This document shows, piece after piece, positions 1 through 7,467 of a stretch of 10,744 nucleotides of DNA (position 1 is its first letter; every line of letters starts with the position of its first letter). Below the pieces are notes generated by a model. The model did not search any database and had not been told where the DNA came from. It was given only the letters and a program-made list of their open reading frames with translations. Source of the DNA: Candidatus Pacearchaeota archaeon (lineage in GTDB: Archaea; Nanobdellota; Nanobdellia; Pacearchaeales; GW2011-AR1); the NCBI GenBank assembly GCA_016866975.1, contig VGKP01000022.1:1-10744 (forward strand), given 5' to 3'. Made by a program: the position numbers and the translations under genes.

Positions 1-5
1 TTTTT

Positions 6-620
6 ATGTCAAGGAACTTGACTAAAACTCCAGCTTTTAAGCTGGAGTTGTTCCTTGAGCATCCAAAAAACGAGCGCCTGCATCAAACTGCGGCTTTTAA
101 GCCGCAGTGGCGCATCGTTTTTTTGATTTCAATTGTACCTTACCCTACAGGAAAAGTCATCGAAGATACTGGCAGAGCTGTTGCAGATGTCAAAGGCAAC
201 TATGTACAAGGAGAGCCTGTTACAGGAAAATTAAAATTGCAATTTACGGCCGGGGAGTTTGTACCAAGAGATTCACAGATTTTTGTTAAACTTGGAAGTC
301 AAGAGAAAGTGTTTCTTCTTTCTGAAGTATTTGCTGAACCTGCTCAAGAGGGAGTGTTTTTTGCAGAAGGCGTGGAGCTTGTAGGGACAGGAAAAGGCTA
401 TGGCGTTGCAGGTGTTAAGACTATATATCCAGATGTGAGCTTTGAACTACATATAGGGAAAGAAGCAAAGCCTGTCGATGAATCCTCTTCTACTCCAACT
501 AAAGAAGTCTCCAGGGGAGGCGGCGGAGGTGGTGAGAGGAAAGAAGACAAGAGAGCTGAAGAGAAGAAAGATGACAAAAATGAAAGTGACACTATCGTTT
601 TTCGAATAAATAATCGATAG
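6..620 (+). CDS. Hypothetical secreted or membrane-anchored protein, probably 5'-truncated by the window edge; first 40 codons mostly come from an in-frame copy of the double-hairpin element
   Basis: Open frame 6-620. After the repeat comes a hydrophobic stretch and PTGKVI, a beta-rich-looking region, then a Gly6 plus charged low-complexity tail. The ATG at 6-8 straddles the repeat junction, so the true start may lie upstream. Confidence 0.55.
   Translation: MSRNLTKTPAFKLELFLEHPKNERLHQTAAFKPQWRIVFLISIVPYPTGKVIEDTGRAVADVKGNYVQGEPVTGKLKLQFTAGEFVPRDSQIFVKLGSQEKVFLLSEVFAEPAQEGVFFAEGVELVGTGKGYGVAGVKTIYPDVSFELHIGKEAKPVDESSSTPTKEVSRGGGGGGERKEDKRAEEKKDDKNESDTIVFRINNR
8..124. mobile_element. Double-hairpin dispersed element, copy 1 (117 nt, full length); putative non-autonomous MITE/REP-like element
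   Basis: Hairpin A: TCAAGGAAC(9-17)/GTTCCTTGA(50-58), 8-nt bulge, AACTCCAGC(26-34)-TTTTAA-GCTGGAGTT(41-49). Hairpin B: AAAAAACGA(65-73)/TCGTTTTTT(115-123), GCGCC/GGCGC, 8-nt bulge TGCATCAA, ACTGCGGC(87-94)-TTTTAA-GCCGCAGT(101-108). Homologous to 6682-6796 and 2553-2613. Confidence 0.8.
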
Positions 621-722
621 ATTGTGTACCTGATTGTCAATTACGCAGTGTTTGTACTTTCCCAGTGACTCGGTATATAACCTTAATTGTTTCCAATCAT
701 ATTAATCTGTAATTGTGATTTA

Positions 723-730
723 TATATAAA
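723..730 (+). promoter_or_regulatory. TATA box of the small zinc-ribbon gene
   Basis: TATATAAA ending 21 nt before ATG 752, the same spacing as other genes in the window. Confidence 0.65.
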
Positions 731-751
731 GAAAAGGCATCTCAATCATTT

Positions 752-928
752 ATGAACGCACAAACGACCTTGATGACTGCAATGGCCGTATCTTGCAAGA
801 AGTGTGGAGAGCTGTTTGATCTCTCCTATGACCTTGAGCAAGGTGGCGACTCAGGCGATGTGATGAGCGTGTTGCGAAGCAAGCTGACGCGACGTGCAGC
901 ACTGTGCTGGAAGTGCAGGAACACCTAA
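752..928 (+). CDS. Small CxxC...CxxC zinc-ribbon-like protein (58 aa), absent from the ORF track
   Basis: Manual translation: MNAQTTLMTAMAVSCKKCGELFDLSYDLEQGGDSGDVMSVLRSKLTRRAALCWKCRNT*. Two CxxC pairs, a TATA box 21 nt upstream and a T-tract immediately downstream. Confidence 0.75.
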   Translation: MNAQTTLMTAMAVSCKKCGELFDLSYDLEQGGDSGDVMSVLRSKLTRRAALCWKCRNT

Positions 929-932
929 AAAC

Positions 933-952
933 TTTTTTCTTTTTTCTTTTTT
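933..952 (+). terminator. Archaeal oligo-T terminator (T6-C-T6-C-T6)
   Basis: TTTTTTCTTTTTTCTTTTTT, 4 nt after the stop at 926-928. Confidence 0.65.
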
Positions 953-985
953 CGTTCCAGTGAAAAGAGAGGTGCATTTGAAAGA

Positions 986-993
986 TTTATAAA
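986..993 (+). promoter_or_regulatory. TATA box for CDS 1015-1413
   Basis: AAAGA-TTTATAAA ending 21 nt before ATG 1015. Confidence 0.65.
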
Positions 994-1014
994 TTCTTTA
1001 TTACTTTCAGAATT

Positions 1015-1413
1015 ATGACTTGGAGTTATACTGCTGTAGAAGTGATAGCAAGTCTGATTGTGATTTTAGGCCTTATAAAGCTAGTTATTGTGCTGTTCTC
1101 TAAAAAGACTTGGTATTCCAAGGTTGTTGTCCTTATATATAAGAATCCCAAGATTGCAGGATTCGTTTATGCAATCTTTACAGCAGTAGTTTTTTATTAT
1201 CTGATACTTGAATTAACTTTGGTTCAAATAATGGCAGTAATGGGATTTGCAAGTCTTATGTTTGGGATGGCATTATTGCTCTATGCAAAGGATATTCTTC
1301 CAGCAATCACAAAAGGCGTTAATAAACCATTGAGCTTTTGGAGAATTGTATATATCTTGATATGGGTATTATTATTTGTTCTTACAGGGAAAGAGTTGCT
1401 TGGTGCTTTATAG
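1015..1413 (+). CDS. Hypothetical integral membrane protein (132 aa, about 4 TM segments)
   Basis: Four long hydrophobic segments and its own TATA box; family not recognised. Confidence 0.85.
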   Translation: MTWSYTAVEVIASLIVILGLIKLVIVLFSKKTWYSKVVVLIYKNPKIAGFVYAIFTAVVFYYLILELTLVQIMAVMGFASLMFGMALLLYAKDILPAITKGVNKPLSFWRIVYILIWVLLFVLTGKELLGAL

Positions 1414-1454
1414 AGTTCAATAATCTTTATTAATGCTGTTTTGCGGCTCATTTA

Positions 1455-2222
1455 ATGATTTTCTTGGAGGTACTGGTTTATGCTTTGATACAAGGATTAC
1501 TAGAATGGTTTCCTGTCTCTAGTTCTGGACATCTCACGATGGTCCAAATGTTCCTTAAATCCGAACCAGGGGTTTTATTCTTCGTTGCATTGCACTTTGG
1601 GACATTAATGGCTGTTTTTGTCTATTTTGGAAAAGATCTTGTAGATATAATGAGAGAGATGGTTTCGCTTAGGTTTAATACTGAAAATGGCAAATTGGGA
1701 TTATATTTGTTAATTGGGGCTATACCAGCTGTAATAGCCGGAGGATTAATATATACATTCATGGAGAAAATTTCTGATACTTGGTTATTACTTGCCGTAG
1801 GATTTGGCATTACAAGCATATTACTTTTTATGGGATCTATGGCTCCAAAAAGAAATGTGAAGATAACCTGGAAAATAGCCTTATTTATAGGGATTGCACA
1901 AATACTTTCACTATTTAGAGGAGTATCAAGGAGCGGAAGCACAATAGCTACAGGCTTGTTACTTGGATTAAGAGAAAGAGAAGCAATAAAGTTTTCGTAC
2001 CTTCTTTCAATTCCTCTAATTTTTGGAGCGAATCTTGTCCTTGCAGGAAATAAACCGTTGCCGTCTGAGCTTATATGGGCCACATTTGTGGCTTTTGGAG
2101 TAAGCCTGATAGTGATGCATTTCTCTTTCAATTATGTGCTAAACGATCGGAAAAACTTGAGATGGCTGGGATGGTATATGCTTCTGCTTTCTTGTGGTGT
2201 AGGAACATATGCTTTGCTCTGA
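1455..2222 (+). CDS. uppP: Undecaprenyl/polyprenyl-diphosphate phosphatase (BacA/UppP family)
   Basis: Motifs QGLLEWFPVSSSGH, LHFGT, GVSRSGSTI and FSYLLSIP; multi-TM, 255 aa. TATA box TTTATTAA at 1426-1433, 21 nt upstream. Confidence 0.93.
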   Translation: MIFLEVLVYALIQGLLEWFPVSSSGHLTMVQMFLKSEPGVLFFVALHFGTLMAVFVYFGKDLVDIMREMVSLRFNTENGKLGLYLLIGAIPAVIAGGLIYTFMEKISDTWLLLAVGFGITSILLFMGSMAPKRNVKITWKIALFIGIAQILSLFRGVSRSGSTIATGLLLGLREREAIKFSYLLSIPLIFGANLVLAGNKPLPSELIWATFVAFGVSLIVMHFSFNYVLNDRKNLRWLGWYMLLLSCGVGTYALL

Positions 2223-2278
2223 TTTGTTACTGCAGAGTTTAACCTTACCTATTTAAGAAGCTTCTTTCTTGACTTTGA

Positions 2279-2596
2279 ATGAGAGGGAAACTTGAAAAGG
2301 AAATTGAGGCGTTGCTGGGAAGCGGGAAACATGATACAGCTCTTGTACCCCGCCATCGTCATGCAGATCCTCCTAAACAACTCGATCTTTTTGATCCGCA
2401 TCTGGAAAAACACCGACGCAAAAAGCTACAGATGGACCTGAACTTTCATCGTTTTGTCTCACGGGGTGTAGAGCCAATCTATTTTGCCGACAGTTTTACG
2501 GTTTCGACTTTCTATGAGACATTGAGCGCTGCTTTTTATGGAGGATTTTTATGTCAAGGAACTTGGCTAAAACTCCAGCTTTTAAGTCGAGGCTAA
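2279..2596 (+). CDS. Hypothetical protein (105 aa); last 14 codons read through element copy 2
   Basis: TATA-like TATTTAAG at 2250-2257, 21 nt upstream. Removing 2553-2613 restores a TGA right after ...FYGGFL. Confidence 0.6.
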   Translation: MRGKLEKEIEALLGSGKHDTALVPRHRHADPPKQLDLFDPHLEKHRRKKLQMDLNFHRFVSRGVEPIYFADSFTVSTFYETLSAAFYGGFLCQGTWLKLQLLSRG

Positions 2597-2613
2597 AACA
2601 CGAAGAGTTTTGT
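2553..2613. mobile_element. Double-hairpin element, copy 2 (61 nt, internally deleted/degenerate)
   Basis: 2546-2586 matches 1-41 at 40/41 nt. It then continues GTCGAGG (compare GCCGAGG, right arm of hairpin B in copy 3) and ends TTTTGT before GA, as copy 3 does. Confidence 0.7.
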
Positions 2614-2673
2614 GACACCAAAGATTTTTTCTGAAGAAGCAACATACTATTGAGTGTTTGTCTTCAGGTTTTA

Positions 2674-4467
2674 TCATTCAACGACTGCTTTAATCCTTCT
2701 TATTCCTGCAGCAGAAGCTTCTTCTTTTATTATCTTAAAATTTCCTAACTCGGAAGTGTTTGAGACATGAGGTCCAGTGCATATCTCTCTGCTGAACCAT
2801 CCTTTTTTGTCTGATGGATCTTCTATAGTGTATACAGAGACAAGTTCAGGATATTTTGCTCCAAACTCTGCTTGCGCCCCAGATGAGAGGGCATCTTTCA
2901 ATGGAATCTCAGACCTTGTGATTGCAAGAGCTGACTTTATTTTTTCGTTTACATAGTCTTCTATACTCTTAATTTCATCAGACGTAAGCTTTCTTGGGAA
3001 ATTGAAGTCAAACCTTAGCCTTTCTTGAGTTATGTTGGATCCTTTTTGCTTTACTTCTTTTGATAGTATCCTTCTTAACGCTTCATTTAATAGGTGCGTA
3101 GCTGTATGTAGCATTCTTGTGGCTTCTGAATTGTCTGCTAGACCGGATTTGAACATTCCTGAGCTAGCTGTCCTGCTGAGATCTTGATGTTTTTGGAATT
3201 CCTGATTGTATTCTTCTAAGTCTACCTTGAGACCTTTCTCTTCCGCCAATTCTTGTGTCATCTCTATAGGGAATCCATAGCTTTGAAAAAGCAAGAAGGC
3301 TTCTTTGCCGGGAATAATAGTCTTCAAGTCTTCTGAAATCTCTTCGAATTTCTTAAGACCCTTTTCAAGCGTTTGATTGAAACGCATCTCCTCTTCATCA
3401 AGTTGTTGAGTGATGAACTTGTGGTTTCTGTGCAACTCCTGGTAATCAGGGAAGATAGGAAGAATTGTCTTTACTATCTTAGATGCGAATGGAGAAGGGA
3501 TACTCAAGATACGGGCATATCTTATTGCTCTTCTTATCAACCTTCTTAAGACATATCCCTGTCCTAAGTTGCTTGGCTTTATCCCTCTTTCGTCTCCAAG
3601 GATAAAAGTTGCTGCACGAATATGGTCTGCAATAATTCTCATTGCTCTTGTCTCTTCTTCATTCTTGCCATACTTCTTATTAGAGAGAAGTTCTATCTCC
3701 TTGATTATTGGCTGGAAAATGGAAGTTTGATAGTTGTCTTCTAGACCATTTAGGACGGCGAGTGTACGCTCTACACCCATGCCCGTGTCTACGTTCTGCT
3801 GAGACAATGAGAAATATTTTCCAGATTTATCTTTATTGTATTGCATGAAGACATCATTCCATATCTCCACCCAGTTTTCATCTTCAGCATCGAATCTTCT
3901 TGGAGGCTTGGTCTTGGACTTCCAGTAAAACATCTCAGTGTCTGGACCGCAGGGACCGGTATTTCCTGCTGGTCCCCACCAATTATTCTTTTTTGGAAGA
4001 AATGCAATACGTTCTTTTGGAATGCCCAAGGAGAGCCAGATTTTCTCTGATTCTGTATCTTTTGGAGCATCAGAATCTCCTGCGAAGCAAGAGACTGCAA
4101 GCCTCTCTCTAGGTATATTTAATATCTCAGTTAGAAATTTAAAAGAGAACTTGATAGCATCTTCCTTGAAGTAGTCTCCTAGTGACCAGTTACCGAGCAT
4201 CTCAAAAAAGGTGTGGTGTGTAGTATCTCCTACTTCTTCAATATCTTGAGTGCGGATACATTTCTGGACGCTTACTAAGAGTTTTCCTAGAGGATGCTTC
4301 TGGCCAGTGAGATAGGGGACCAGAGGATGCATGCCTGCAGTTGTAAAAAGAACTGTTGGGTCGTTCTCAGGTATAAGGGATGAAGAAGGAATATGCTTAT
4401 GATGCTTGCTTTTGAAGAATTCAATGTACTCCTTTATCAAGTCTTGTCTTGTCTTTAACTTTATCAT
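2674..4467 (-). CDS. alaS: Alanine--tRNA ligase, short bacterial-type form (597 aa) lacking the C-Ala domain
   Basis: DPTVLFTTAGMHPL, QKCIRT, HHTFFEMLGNWSLGDYFK, GPCGPDTE, EIWNDVFMQY, DTGMGVER, IADHIR, editing motifs HTATH and CTGPH; ends at GIRRIKAVVE. TATA box (TTTATTAA on the - strand) at 4489-4496. Confidence 0.97.
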   Translation of the reverse strand: MIKLKTRQDLIKEYIEFFKSKHHKHIPSSSLIPENDPTVLFTTAGMHPLVPYLTGQKHPLGKLLVSVQKCIRTQDIEEVGDTTHHTFFEMLGNWSLGDYFKEDAIKFSFKFLTEILNIPRERLAVSCFAGDSDAPKDTESEKIWLSLGIPKERIAFLPKKNNWWGPAGNTGPCGPDTEMFYWKSKTKPPRRFDAEDENWVEIWNDVFMQYNKDKSGKYFSLSQQNVDTGMGVERTLAVLNGLEDNYQTSIFQPIIKEIELLSNKKYGKNEEETRAMRIIADHIRAATFILGDERGIKPSNLGQGYVLRRLIRRAIRYARILSIPSPFASKIVKTILPIFPDYQELHRNHKFITQQLDEEEMRFNQTLEKGLKKFEEISEDLKTIIPGKEAFLLFQSYGFPIEMTQELAEEKGLKVDLEEYNQEFQKHQDLSRTASSGMFKSGLADNSEATRMLHTATHLLNEALRRILSKEVKQKGSNITQERLRFDFNFPRKLTSDEIKSIEDYVNEKIKSALAITRSEIPLKDALSSGAQAEFGAKYPELVSVYTIEDPSDKKGWFSREICTGPHVSNTSELGNFKIIKEEASAAGIRRIKAVVE

Positions 4468-4510
4468 AAATGTAAAGGAAGAATAGGGTTAATAAAGATT
4501 TTTGCGTTGT

Positions 4511-4912
4511 TTAATTGACAACAGTTATTAAAGGCACACTGGCAAGGTCTTTATCAAATGTGGCTAGAACATTTGCAATATTTTTTCTTATCAAGGCGAT
4601 GATGGTGCAATCTGTAAAGCTTAATCTTAATCTTTCTTGATTTTTGAATATTAACCATCCTTCCTCAAAGACTTCTTCATCTACTTTGATGATTGGGAAT
4701 TCTTTTATTTTTCCGCAATGGGCTAAAGATTTCTCTTTATTCTTTATTCTAGCTGAAAGTACTGTCACACATTCATCAAAAATATAATCTGTGATGTGAG
4801 CGCTCCCATATTTGCCACTTTTAACCCTATCTAATAGTTCTGTCGCTTTTTGGTGATTTTGATCTTCAATATTATGATATGCAATTAGCACGCTTGAATC
4901 AATTATTATCAT
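4511..4912 (-). CDS. vapC: PIN-domain toxin, VapC family (133 aa from ATG 4912)
   Basis: MIIIDSSVLIA (first Asp), DECVT, LSFTDC and TFDKD give the acidic PIN tetrad. The start overlaps the antitoxin end by 14 nt. The track's extension to 5050 lies inside the antitoxin gene. Confidence 0.9.
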   Translation of the reverse strand: MIIIDSSVLIAYHNIEDQNHQKATELLDRVKSGKYGSAHITDYIFDECVTVLSARIKNKEKSLAHCGKIKEFPIIKVDEEVFEEGWLIFKNQERLRLSFTDCTIIALIRKNIANVLATFDKDLASVPLITVVN

Positions 4913-5174
4913 TCTCTTTTCCGTAAAGAATTTCATCAATTTTTTCACTAAGTCTTTCGTTTCCTGGCCCAAAATCGATGGGTCTGAAATCCAATGCTTT
5001 TTTAACTTTCTCAAGATTGTCTTGAAGAGATTTACTTTGTGTTTCTTCAAGGTATTTTTTCATGAGCATTGTCAAAAGATCCCCTATCTTCTTCCTTTCC
5101 GCTATAGCTCTCGCTCTTAGCTTTCTAAAAGTGTCTTCATCTACATCTCTTACTGCTATAAATGTCTTCCCCAT
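4899..5174 (-). CDS. vapB: Ribbon-helix-helix antitoxin, VapB/FitA-like (91 aa)
   Basis: N-terminal TFIAVRDVDEDTFRKLRARAIAERKKIGDLL fits an RHH fold; C-terminal LSEKIDEILYG is typical of archaeal VapB; directly upstream of and overlapping the PIN gene. Confidence 0.8.
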   Translation of the reverse strand: MGKTFIAVRDVDEDTFRKLRARAIAERKKIGDLLTMLMKKYLEETQSKSLQDNLEKVKKALDFRPIDFGPGNERLSEKIDEILYGKENDNN

Positions 5175-5196
5175 ATGTTAAACATGTTTAACATAT
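5173..5196. promoter_or_regulatory. Perfect 24-bp palindromic operator of the vapBC operon
   Basis: ATATGTTAAACATGTTTAACATAT is its own reverse complement. It fills the gap between the TATA box (5196-5203, TTTATATA on the - strand) and the antitoxin ATG. Confidence 0.8.
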
Positions 5197-5208
5197 ATAT
5201 AAATCTTA

Positions 5209-5823
5209 CTAAATTTCTATTATCTTGCCTTCTCTCCCTACATTGATAACTCTTGTCCCACCTATCTTATTTTCCATGCCTCCAGCTTCGTGGATGTGGC
5301 CATGAAGAAGGATATCTGGCTTGAACTGCTTTATAGCCTTGGTGATTGCCTTGCTTCCGGGAATGCCTGAGAATTCTGATGCACTACCTTTGGGGTGCAT
5401 ATGAGTGACCATTATTTTTTTCTCAATGCCTTGCAATCCAGAGTTTGCTTTCTTCAATGTATTAAAAAGTTCATCTTCGGATAGCGCCCCTGGGAAAAAC
5501 ATGATATCTGAAGAGCCTCCGGCACCAAAGAAGCCTATATTCTCGTATTTTACTGAATAACCGTGGATGTTTTTAACCCCATAAAGCTCGGCCAAGAAAT
5601 CTGCTGTGGCAAAAGATTCGTGATTACCCGGGATTATAAGGACTTTCCTCTTTTTCTGCCGGAAAGGCTTTATAAGGTCTTTCGTCTCAACATTGCCGAC
5701 TATATCTCCGCATAAAACTACAAGGTCGACATTCTCTTTCTCTGCTCTTTTTGCAAGCTCTTTTGTTAGTCTTGCGTCTCCGTGAATGTCTGCAGCTGCA
5801 AGTATCTTGAATCTTTTATGCAT
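5209..5823 (-). CDS. Calcineurin-like metallophosphoesterase (204 aa)
   Basis: Metal-binding motifs DIHG, CGD, GNHE, THMHP and HGHIH in canonical order. TATA-like CTTATAAT (5845-5852, - strand) 21 nt upstream. Confidence 0.92.
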   Translation of the reverse strand: MHKRFKILAAADIHGDARLTKELAKRAEKENVDLVVLCGDIVGNVETKDLIKPFRQKKRKVLIIPGNHESFATADFLAELYGVKNIHGYSVKYENIGFFGAGGSSDIMFFPGALSEDELFNTLKKANSGLQGIEKKIMVTHMHPKGSASEFSGIPGSKAITKAIKQFKPDILLHGHIHEAGGMENKIGGTRVINVGREGKIIEI

Positions 5824-5894
5824 AAATATGACTACAGTTTTATCATTATAAGTCTTGTGGAGAGGTTTAAAAATTAGTTAGCCTTCAATATTTC

Positions 5895-6455
5895 ATGAAC
5901 AAAAGAGGAACAAAGTGGCTTGGATTAGGAATATTGCTCACACTTTTGGTCTTGACAGGATTTTATATTTTCTCAGCGACAATTGGTCCTAGGTATGACC
6001 ATTATTATGATAGTAAGATGGCTACAGGGGAACTTGCAAATCCCATATCTGGGATGAGTATTAGCGAAGCGCATGAGAGATTTAATGAAGATCATGTACA
6101 TTATTTCTTGGCTTTGTTGAGAGTGTATAATCTTCATCCGGCTACTCCCGGGGGAGATTTTCCTCAATTTGAAATTATTGTAAATGAAGAGAGTTATAAG
6201 GTAGTTGTATTATCTGGATCTATAAGCGTCAAGAGAGGAAAACCTAACGAGAAGGACATTGTGATATATACTACACAATCGGAAATATTGAGCGCGTTAC
6301 AAAATCCAGATTCAGTGTCAGAATCTTTCAATTCAGGTGCATTAAGAATAGAGTATATTGCCGATAGGAGCACCTTGCTTTACAAAGGTTATGATTCTGT
6401 CTTTTCTCAATATAAGAGAGGAATAACAGGAAATATTATAAGGTCATTTACATAG
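5895..6455 (+). CDS. N-terminally anchored protein with a possible SCP2-like (sterol carrier protein 2) lipid-binding domain (186 aa)
   Basis: MNKRG followed by a TM helix. YKVVVLSGSISVKRGKPNEKDIVIYTTQSEILSAL...SFNSGALRIE follows the SCP2 pattern by eye. TATA box TTTAAAAA at 5866-5873. The CDS is solid; the domain call is tentative. Confidence 0.6.
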   Translation: MNKRGTKWLGLGILLTLLVLTGFYIFSATIGPRYDHYYDSKMATGELANPISGMSISEAHERFNEDHVHYFLALLRVYNLHPATPGGDFPQFEIIVNEESYKVVVLSGSISVKRGKPNEKDIVIYTTQSEILSALQNPDSVSESFNSGALRIEYIADRSTLLYKGYDSVFSQYKRGITGNIIRSFT

Positions 6456-6465
6456 AAAGTAAAAT

Positions 6466-6696
6466 ATGGGTTTGGAAGACATAGATGTGACCAAAGTTAT
6501 AGAAGAGTTGGAGAATATTTCAGGAGTAAGAGTGTTTGATGAGGATTTAAGAGCCGGAATCTTTTATATAGGGATGGAGTTGCCAGATGGAAAGAGCGAG
6601 CTGACTGCGCTGGTCGAGATATATGAAGATAGAGCCTATTTCTTAAAAGAAGGCGTACCTGAAACAACACCTCCTTCTTATGTCGGGAACCGATGA
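6466..6696 (+). CDS. Hypothetical acidic protein, probably truncated by element copy 3
   Basis: Starts 10 nt after the previous stop. The last codons (VGNR*) come from the repeat. Removing 6682-6796 joins the gene in frame to a 21-codon tail ending at TAA 6860-6862. Confidence 0.6.
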   Translation: MGLEDIDVTKVIEELENISGVRVFDEDLRAGIFYIGMELPDGKSELTALVEIYEDRAYFLKEGVPETTPPSYVGNR

Positions 6697-6796
6697 AAAC
6701 CACACCTTTCAAGGTGTGGTGGTTCCCGAGCATCTCCAAAAACGAGCGCCTGCAACAAACCTCGGCTTTTAAGCCGAGGTGGCGCATCGTTTTTGT
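6682..6796. mobile_element. Double-hairpin element, copy 3 (115 nt, full length)
   Basis: Hairpin A: TCGGGAACC(6683-91)/GGTTCCCGA(6721-29), 7-nt bulge, ACCACACC-TTTCAA-GGTGTGGT. Hairpin B: CAAAAACGA/TCGTTTTTG, GCGCC/GGCGC, bulge TGCAACAA, ACCTCGGC-TTTTAA-GCCGAGGT. Covaries with copy 1. Confidence 0.8.
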
Positions 6797-6855
6797 GATC
6801 TTAAAGTCAATCATGTATTGGCCAAGAACGATCTTCAGCCCATAAATGTCTTGAG

Positions 6856-7467
6856 TCAGTAAGATTCCTTGTATCTGCCTCTACTTTCAACAAGCTTAAA
6901 TCTCTGCAAGACCAAAGAATAGTTTTTTGAAATCTTGTATCCTTGCATCACTGCCTTGAAGCACTTCTTAAAATCCCTATGATGCCTAGCTTCTAGAGCT
7001 TCTTTAATCAGATGCAGGTCAACTGCTTTGTCCTCTATACGACTTGATTCGAAACCTAGGCCGAAGTCAATGAAGTAAACGGAATTGTTTGGAGAGAGAA
7101 TCATGTTACTTGTTGTCAAGTCTCCGTGAATTATGTTTGCATCGTGAAGTTTTGCAATCTGAGAGCCTATCTTTCTGCAAATCGCAATTTTATTCTTTAA
7201 TTTATCTAAACAATCCGAAATCTTCTTGCCATTTATGTACTCCAATTCTATCAAAGACTTATCTTCAGAGAATGAAATCAACTCTGGGACAGGCACAATT
7301 GAAGATGCTTTCCTTATCAATCTAACTTCTTTTCTCGTCCTACTCTTTCTTATCTTTTCATCTAACTGAGATAATCTGTAACCTTTTTTGATCCTATTTT
7401 TGACAACTCTGTCTCTTTCTTTAAAAATTATGGCCTCTGCTCCTTGAGATATTACTTCAGAAATCAT
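6856..7467 (-). CDS. bud32: KEOPS complex kinase Bud32 (stand-alone, 203 aa)
   Basis: QGAEAII, RIKKGYR, RTRKEVRL, IIHGDLTTSNMIL, IDFGLG, EDKAVDLH and VESRGRY. Confidence 0.95.
   Translation of the reverse strand: MISEVISQGAEAIIFKERDRVVKNRIKKGYRLSQLDEKIRKSRTRKEVRLIRKASSIVPVPELISFSEDKSLIELEYINGKKISDCLDKLKNKIAICRKIGSQIAKLHDANIIHGDLTTSNMILSPNNSVYFIDFGLGFESSRIEDKAVDLHLIKEALEARHHRDFKKCFKAVMQGYKISKNYSLVLQRFKLVESRGRYKESY

Follow-up and report, generated by a model that had tools for sequence, protein, structure and literature searches.

What is the short repeat that occurs three times in the contig VGKP01000022.1 of a Candidatus Pacearchaeota archaeon (assembly GCA_016866975.1), how does it come to lie in or at the end of open reading frames (ORFs), and can the genes that it occupies be restored by its removal? 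The window analysed here is that whole contig (10,744 nt, forward strand), contig C22 of a source genome of 806 kb in 31 contigs with 38% G+C. A reading made from the sequence alone had placed the three copies at 8-124, 2553-2613 and 6682-6796, each preceded by TTAT and followed by GA, and had interpreted them as insertions into a TTAT^GA target whose excision repairs each gene. The three related copies are present at these places with the flanks described (trailing bases GAT, GAC and GAT, respectively), and the insertions are real; however, the right-hand half of the proposed target belongs to the element itself, and repair by excision could be shown for none of the three window copies. We conclude, with a probability of roughly 0.8, that the repeats are a non-autonomous element of the IS200/IS605 type, that is, a palindrome-associated transposable element (PATE), consisting of two end hairpins with nothing between them and moved by a Y1 (HUH) transposase.

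The repeat inserts 3' of TTAT and ends in its own GAT

A whole-genome search yielded 64 element places in the source genome, including 45 complete copies. The latter comprise 21 copies of type A (120 nt, like copy 1 of the window), 18 of type B (118 nt, like copy 3), two A/B chimeras of 121 nt, and four longer copies with nested modules of 50-51 nt. The search for complete copies required a trailing GAT, which all 45 therefore show by construction. Among the 42 of these copies with a readable 5' flank, T is invariant at positions -4 and -1 (42/42 each), A occupies -2 in 41/42, and T occupies -3 in 35/42, for a consensus of T-N-A-T, with TTAT itself in 35/42 and only a mild preference for T beyond -4. 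Such constancy lies well outside what chance would produce. Copies in relatives have the same 5' target. On the right side, GAT trails nearly all of 62 listed element places, no conserved sequence is found downstream of it, and TTAT is not repeated.

The boundaries were tested by aligning interrupted genes of the source genome to uninterrupted orthologues from other species of the genus (G016 and G010). These alignments revealed a clean 120-nt interruption of a Nudix gene and of two other genes, confirming sequence-specific insertion into coding DNA. In the Nudix gene (C25:5968), KPAKFN[D]FLVYIFEA aligns with KPAKFN-FLVYIFEA in G016 and KPAKFN-FLVYVFEA in G010; at C1:116280, ...QYIY[D]LKHLHKLQ aligns with ...QEDF-LHNLHKLQ in G016, and at C3:34017, GFYY[D]LTRDIG aligns with GTYQ-LNRSVS in G010. 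Thus, what the intact orthologues are missing at each of these independent mid-gene sites is precisely the GAT codon, which fits removal of GTC...GAT. The comparison with orthologues that had been proposed as a check on the insertions bears on these three other loci; no empty allele of any window copy was found. For type B, orthologues defined no boundary, the gene junction at C10:30517 being too variable and the gene at C6:34049 having no orthologue.

Furthermore, an internal linker, GCATCC, supplies an ATC with which GAT is paired in every one of the 20 family members aligned; copies 1 and 3, when folded as DNA, show the same pairing. Because GAT is missing from the intact orthologues and is paired inside the element, GA is best seen as the element's own 3' end and not as part of the target, so that only the TTAT half of the proposed TTAT^GA site stands. 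As judged from these comparisons, the true bounds of the three copies, given in Table 1, reach three bases beyond those first proposed, the element ends in ...TGAT, and the target is confined to the 5' side, where it reads TTAT or, more strictly, T-N-A-T. Terminal inverted repeats are absent: the 5' end GTCAAGGAAC and the 3' end ...CGTTTTTTTGAT share at most a TCA/TGA match.

Two hairpins carry guide-like bases at their feet

Copies 1-3 were folded as single-stranded DNA and a z-score was obtained for each fold. Types A and B fold into two long hairpins (copy 1, -41.9 kcal/mol, z = -10.9; copy 3, -42.8 kcal/mol, z = -11.6) of the same architecture, namely, an outer stem, a one-sided internal loop of 8-10 nt ending in AAA(A), a G/C-rich inner stem of 7-8 bp, and a loop of the TTTTAA type. 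In an alignment of 20 family members, from the source genome and many other metagenome-assembled genomes (MAGs) of Pacearchaeota, compensatory double changes were detected at 18 of the 37 predicted pairs. The pairing of an A-run with a T-run, which extends to within four bases of the 3' end, is among the pairs kept by covariation. Relative to type A, type B carries compensatory changes in three stems, namely, the outer and inner stems of hairpin 1 and the inner one of hairpin 2.

The external TTAT is located 18-20 nt 5' of inner hairpin 1, and the terminal TGAT of the element follows inner hairpin 2 at a distance of 20 nt. The inner stems are preceded by xAAA(A) in hairpin 1 and by xCAA(A) in hairpin 2. 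Counted back four positions from the first G/C pair of inner stem 1, the base is A where flank position -3 is T, C where this position is G (L112, L045 and L096), and G where it is C (one variant, at the two loci L084 and L103); the guide C at the right end and the G of TGAT are invariant across the family. Guide and flank covary at five of the six non-A variant loci, in a register that is ambiguous given that A:T pairs can extend the stems (an automatic reading was unstable). The natural variants are suggestive of a guide/target code.

This anatomy resembles that of IS608. That element is cleaved on the left at an external TTAC, 19 nt upstream of its left hairpin, and on the right at an internal TCAA located 3' of its right hairpin; four guide bases, placed 5' of a hairpin foot, recognize each site (PMC3201880). 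By analogy, the repeat would move as a single strand by 'peel and paste', with a Y1 (HUH) transposase supplied in trans. The top strand would be cut right after the flanking TTAT on the left and after the element's own TGAT on the right, each tetranucleotide probably being read by the four bases 5' of an inner hairpin (xAAA:TTAT and xCAA:TGAT). The element would then leave as a single-stranded circle and be pasted, without duplication, 3' of another TTAT exposed on the lagging-strand template. From the sequence, we infer the guide pairing, the circle intermediate and which transposase acts. The model predicts empty joints in which TTAT is followed directly by TTCAATTG, ACCAAAG and CTTAAAG at copies 1, 2 and 3, respectively, and a circle or tandem junction in which ...TTTTTTTGAT abuts GTCAAGG...; circle junctions would likewise read ...TTTTTGAT|GTCAAGG.

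Orientation follows GC skew and copies are depleted inside genes

The orientation of 62 copies was compared with the sign of the GC skew of their contigs, the direction of replication being deduced from skew only. Orientation matched the skew sign in 54 of the 62, including 12/12 on C3 and 6/6 on C2. There was no link to gene strand, with only 53% of neighboring ORF bases co-oriented with the copies. IS608 and its relatives likewise insert into the lagging-strand template (PMC5027513).

Although 81.5% of the 13,627 TTAT sites in the genome fall within genes, as estimated with a long-ORF proxy, only about 17 of the 45 complete copies are located mid-gene (p ~1e-10). This depletion implies that intragenic insertions are selected against, as expected of a disruptive transposon and not of a harmless intron. 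Most intragenic copies truncate the host gene, and antisense ones occur at C2:34617, C3:47352, C9:22276 and C20:1814. Four of the ~13 sense copies are of type A and lie in the single stop-free frame of this type; such insertions may be tolerated by the host gene.

A separate observation concerns start codons. At C3:50404, C8:6418, C19:4465 and window positions 123-128, for example, a copy lies just before an ATN codon; the left junction creates ATG, and the right junction reads TTG in type A or GTG in type B, a potential in-frame alternative start directly ahead of the ATN codon.

A candidate helper transposase resides in the same genome

Y1_Tnp genes were identified in the source genome at C10:194-541, at the start of C6 and at the end of C12. 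The hairpins of the IS200 spanning C21 and C10 resemble those of the repeat, with G/C-rich stems of 7-8 bp, TTTA loops, and GAAAT or GGAAA ahead of them, and this IS200 shares 21 identical bases (GTGGCGCATCGTTTTTTTGAT) with the right end of the repeat. A second copy of the C10 type, at the end of C2, is located directly after ...GAATTAT. No TnpB/IS1341 helper was detected in the genome, PF07282 not rising above the cut-off. Taken together, the sequences point to an IS200-type element with tnpA only as the likely helper.

Two IS200-type subfamilies can be distinguished in this genome, the C10 type with TTTA-loop hairpins and the C6/C12 type with TCTTG-loop hairpins; the latter ends in ...GGGGAGCTTCAC, as it also does in relatives. 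Contigs C21 and C10 are neighbors that overlap by 127 nt.

The three window copies and the genes around them

The three in-silico deletions made in the sequence-only reading reproduce the sequences that it quoted; the genes nevertheless differ in what a deletion could restore. Copy 1, the 117-nt core of which (8-124) is 100% identical at many other loci of the source genome, is in frame with the ORF downstream of it and is stop-free over its 40 codons. In 13 of the 16 other genomes of the genus, this ORF (128-620) has matches, beginning at about query residue 11, among open frames of 256-12,153 aa; no Pfam family rises above the cut-off. Given the homology of this ORF to the C-terminal domains of giant proteins of 450-12,000 aa, copy 1 is probably an in-frame insert in a gene of that type, ~165 codons before its stop, and a frame that the insert leaves open and in phase needs no repair. 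The upstream half of the gene, sought as a long ORF running into an element, was found on no contig end.

Copy 2 is, on sequence, a recombined remnant of two element types at the end of an orphan ORF. The left end of type A supplies its first 34 nt (33/34 identical), and a third, short element type supplies the final ~36 nt with its right end (...AAAAC-N7-GTTTTGTGAC); the junction between these halves lies in a shared CTTTTAAG loop. The resulting sequence is unique in the genome, cannot be folded as DNA (-5.2 kcal/mol, z = +0.17), and ends in GAC, where copies 1 and 3 end in GAT. Because copy 2 arose by recombination, host DNA may have been lost with it. The natural stop proposed for the restored gene, TTA TGA, includes a GA that belongs to the element; if the copy is excised at its corrected bounds, ORF 2279 would continue for another 25 codons and overlap the convergent alanyl-tRNA synthetase gene by ~19 nt. 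No homologue of this ORF was found in 16 related genomes or among 5.8 billion proteins, nor any Pfam match, and the protein look-up returned only the occupied 105-aa allele, on six contigs.

Copy 3, which also has a core (115 nt, 6682-6796) that is 100% identical at many other loci, would cut the last ~20 codons off the small orphan ORF 6466. The putative tail ends tail-to-tail with a gene for a Bud32-type kinase. An open tail of 20-25 codons is not beyond chance at 38% G+C (roughly estimated, ~0.2). ORF 6466 has no homologue in 40 related genomes or among 5.8 billion proteins and no Pfam match, and only the occupied 76-aa allele was recovered by look-up, on three contigs.

Elsewhere in the window, positions 4511-5174 of the reverse strand hold a gene with a PIN domain (Pfam PF01850, E = 7e-15) and, overlapping it upstream, a small ORF, between the alanyl-tRNA synthetase and metallophosphoesterase genes. 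The arrangement suggests that the two are likely a toxin-antitoxin pair.

Table 1. Coordinates of features in the window and of related loci in the source genome
Feature	Position	Strand	Basis or remark
TTAT target of copy 1 (left cleavage-site equivalent; flank)	4-7	+	7 nt of flank, contig start
Copy 1, type A, 120 nt	8-127	+	Hairpin 1 ~9-58, linker GC, hairpin 2 ~61-127, TGAT 124-127
Putative guide tetranucleotide TAAA, 5' of hairpin 1 inner stem	23-26	+	Proposed partner of TTAT; analogy to the left guide (GL) of IS608 (PMC3201880)
Putative guide tetranucleotide TCAA, 5' of hairpin 2 inner stem	83-86	+	Proposed partner of the element's TGAT
ORF after copy 1, C-terminal domain of a giant surface-protein-type gene	128-620	+	Homology
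Orphan ORF, 105 aa as read	2279-2596	+	Extends 14 codons into copy 2
TTAT 5' of copy 2	2549-2552	+	Sequence
Copy 2, dead hybrid, 64 nt	2553-2616	+	Type A left end plus short-type right end
Orphan ORF, 76 aa as read	6466-6696	+	Stops 4 codons into copy 3
TTAT target of copy 3	6678-6681	+	Sequence
Copy 3, type B, 118 nt	6682-6799	+	TGAT 6796-6799; architecture as in type A
Putative coding tail, 20 codons plus stop	6800-6862	+	In frame with ORF 6466 once 6682-6799 is removed
Copies with nested modules	C2:40336-40556, C13:7454-7674, C24:4549-4717, C3:37452-37668, C8:1-126, C2:79280-79449		Source genome
Third, short element type	C1:1590-1665, C2:62060-62125, C9:4620-4680, C9:22000-22076		Source genome; also the right half of window 2553-2616
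IS200-type locations	C21:1-400 (reverse) joined to C10:1-900; C2 end 96751-96941; C6 start, C12 end		Source genome

Spread and variants of the element family

Of 16 genomes of the genus, 13 carry the element family, as do several MAGs named Pacearchaeota, Woesearchaeota and Nanoarchaeota. In the window, individual copies are 64-120 nt long, and elsewhere they reach 221 nt, all too short for a transposase gene; identity of 100% is common among copies in the source genome. Many contigs of this genome terminate within an element copy, with overlaps of 127 nt, which makes the element a main cause of the fragmentation of the assembly.

Several variants were encountered. The nested modules of 50-51 nt consist of two short hairpins each and either interrupt the hairpin 2 loop or separate the two hairpins of the element; a similar loop insert is present in the right hairpin of one relative's IS200 (L127). 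In loop-inverted copies (C1:39229, C1:46347, C6:34049 and C7:12887), TTTTAA is replaced by TTAAAA with the stems unaltered, a flip of the kind seen in DNA hairpins or cruciforms that introduces stop codons into the open frame of type A. Inverted termini, GTCACAAAAC...GTTTTGTGAC, mark the third, short element type, which is ~65 nt long and lies at sites without a preceding TTAT; at C9:4681, a type B copy directly follows the ...TGAT end of an element of this type.

Alternative explanations

Several observations weigh against assigning the repeat to the IS200/IS605 group. No transposase gene flanked by the same two ends, as in a full-length element, was found among 70 related loci, and a Y1 gene was detected in only six of the 13 element-bearing genomes of the genus, all incomplete MAGs. 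Two metagenome scans with flank words, in collections that may lack records close to this genome, recovered no empty alleles of the window copies. The guide rule is broken by the variants L077, L081 and L091, seven of the 42 source-genome copies lie at off-consensus -3 bases, and the extension of stems by A:T pairs leaves the guide register ambiguous. Compared with IS608, the right tail is longer (20 nt from hairpin to cut, compared with 10 nt), and the outer stems are fully self-paired, which is not a feature of IS608. The excess of sense copies among intragenic ones (~13/17, p = 0.015) is explained only in part. Finally, a 2-bp duplication of AT predicts the same empty site and retains a low probability on sequence grounds.

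This last scenario would involve a small transposon of another, non-Y1 class, the element proper being GTC...TTTG and the ATs of TTAT and GAT representing the duplication. The empty sites in the orthologues are identical under both models, and AT stands on both sides of almost all copies. Nevertheless, copies without a left AT (C4:39731 with TTCT and L096 with TGAG) still end in GAT, which argues against duplication, and copy 2 and the short type, with TTAT or another flank before them, terminate in GAC. Moreover, GAT is base-paired within the element in all aligned members, there are no inverted termini for a DDE enzyme, and flank conservation extends over four bases on the left only. Such a transposon would also leave unexplained the strand bias relative to GC skew, a hallmark of single-strand transposition, and we consider it very unlikely. 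The absence of terminal inverted repeats and of a fixed-length target duplication likewise led us to reject a terminal-inverted-repeat type of miniature inverted-repeat transposable element.

The sense excess, the high degree of structure and the length of type A, a whole number of codons, could also be accommodated by an insert that behaves like an intron and is excised from RNA, with the archaeal splicing endonuclease acting at a bulge-helix-bulge as one possible route, leaving the genes functional. A bulge-helix-bulge, which needs the two junctions in 3-nt bulges flanking a 4-bp helix, cannot form here, however, with U-rich junctions (UUAU and a U-run) and a variable downstream flank; the element is consumed by its own two hairpins, and the junctions are at the feet of separate hairpins. 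An Rfam scan of the window detected no ribozyme, intron or other family at E <= 1. Orientation tracks GC skew and not gene strand, antisense intragenic copies exist, copies are strongly depleted in genes, type B measures 118 nt, and neither relatives nor loop-inverted copies retain the open frame of type A. This makes RNA removal the least probable of the alternatives, with hardly any weight left to it.

It could further be argued that the repeat is not selfish and is a functional module, either a small structured RNA gene or a portable promoter or terminator, spread by recombination. Hairpin 2 places its TTTTAA loop 24 nt from the 3' end, which is the spacing usual between TATA and start in archaea, the element ends in a T-run, several copies are located just upstream of genes in the sense orientation, and a 3' junction of TTG or GTG plus AT could substitute for a disrupted ATG. 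Yet the loops vary (TTTA, TTCA, TTGAAA and inverted TTAAAA) and can hold 50-nt inserts, the distance to the next start codon is not constant, and many copies are intragenic or antisense. The same loop type is also found in the resident IS200 hairpins, so that recognition by a transposase accounts for it. We regard spread as a functional module as very improbable. A narrower proposal, that the TTTTAA loop of hairpin 2 together with the terminal TTG or GTG plus AT acts as a portable archaeal promoter and start, and that the type A frame spares some genes, strikes us as quite improbable; if true, it would explain the excess of sense copies among intragenic ones, and the element would be more than a parasite.

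Relation to known elements

As a probable transposon of the IS200/IS605 type, the repeat is of a kind already known, and the element of the source genome reveals no new mechanism; a literature search found no description of it in Pacearchaeota. It shares with IS608 the insertion 3' of a fixed external tetranucleotide (TTAC in IS608, TTAT here) ~19 nt from a hairpin, putative A-rich guide tetranucleotides 5' of the hairpin feet, an internal right site, and an orientation linked to the lagging strand. It differs in having no transposase gene and in its sites (TTAT/TGAT compared with TTAC/TCAA), and here we infer both cleavage and pairing.

The closest parallels are with the PATEs of Haloquadratum walsbyi, which are likewise too short for a transposase, lack terminal inverted repeats, carry palindromes near both termini, cause no target duplication, are related to the IS605 type, and occur in homogeneous bursts of high identity (PMC3119063). 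These PATEs also include 'terminal-only' forms and deletions between the palindromes near the termini, with which copy 2 can be compared, and are targeted by small mobile repeats that the nested modules described above resemble (PMC3119063). In contrast to H. walsbyi, the present host is a DPANN archaeon of the Pacearchaeota type with a 0.8-Mb genome. Its element spans only 118-120 nt, and is almost fully self-paired with an extra outer stem per hairpin; no TnpB/IS1341-type gene was detected in the genome.

In bacteria, repetitive extragenic palindromic (REP) sequences and bacterial interspersed mosaic elements (BIMEs) are short palindromes in high copy number, thought to be moved in trans by a Y1 HUH enzyme, the REP-associated tyrosine transposase (RAYT). 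REPs measure ~20-40 nt, are mostly extragenic, alternate in orientation within BIMEs, and flank a single domesticated RAYT gene, whereas the unit described here combines a pair of hairpins in a single orientation with a defined TTAT target and often falls within genes. Rickettsia palindromic elements (RPEs) are small palindromic repeats found in frame in protein genes of a reduced genome, to which copy 1 and three other type A copies, in frame within genes, bear a likeness. We rejected a selected in-frame insert of the RPE kind: the open frame arose by accident in a single subtype, type B measures 118 nt, and relatives and loop-inverted copies contain stops.

Implications

The exact bounds, GTC...TGAT after TTAT, let annotators recognize split genes in Pacearchaeota, and the strand bias of the element can be used to orient contigs relative to replication. 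The element also offers a compact natural test case for the guide/target code of IS608 in archaea. For its host, it makes up nearly 1% of a 0.8-Mb genome of the symbiont type and breaks or lengthens a dozen or more genes.

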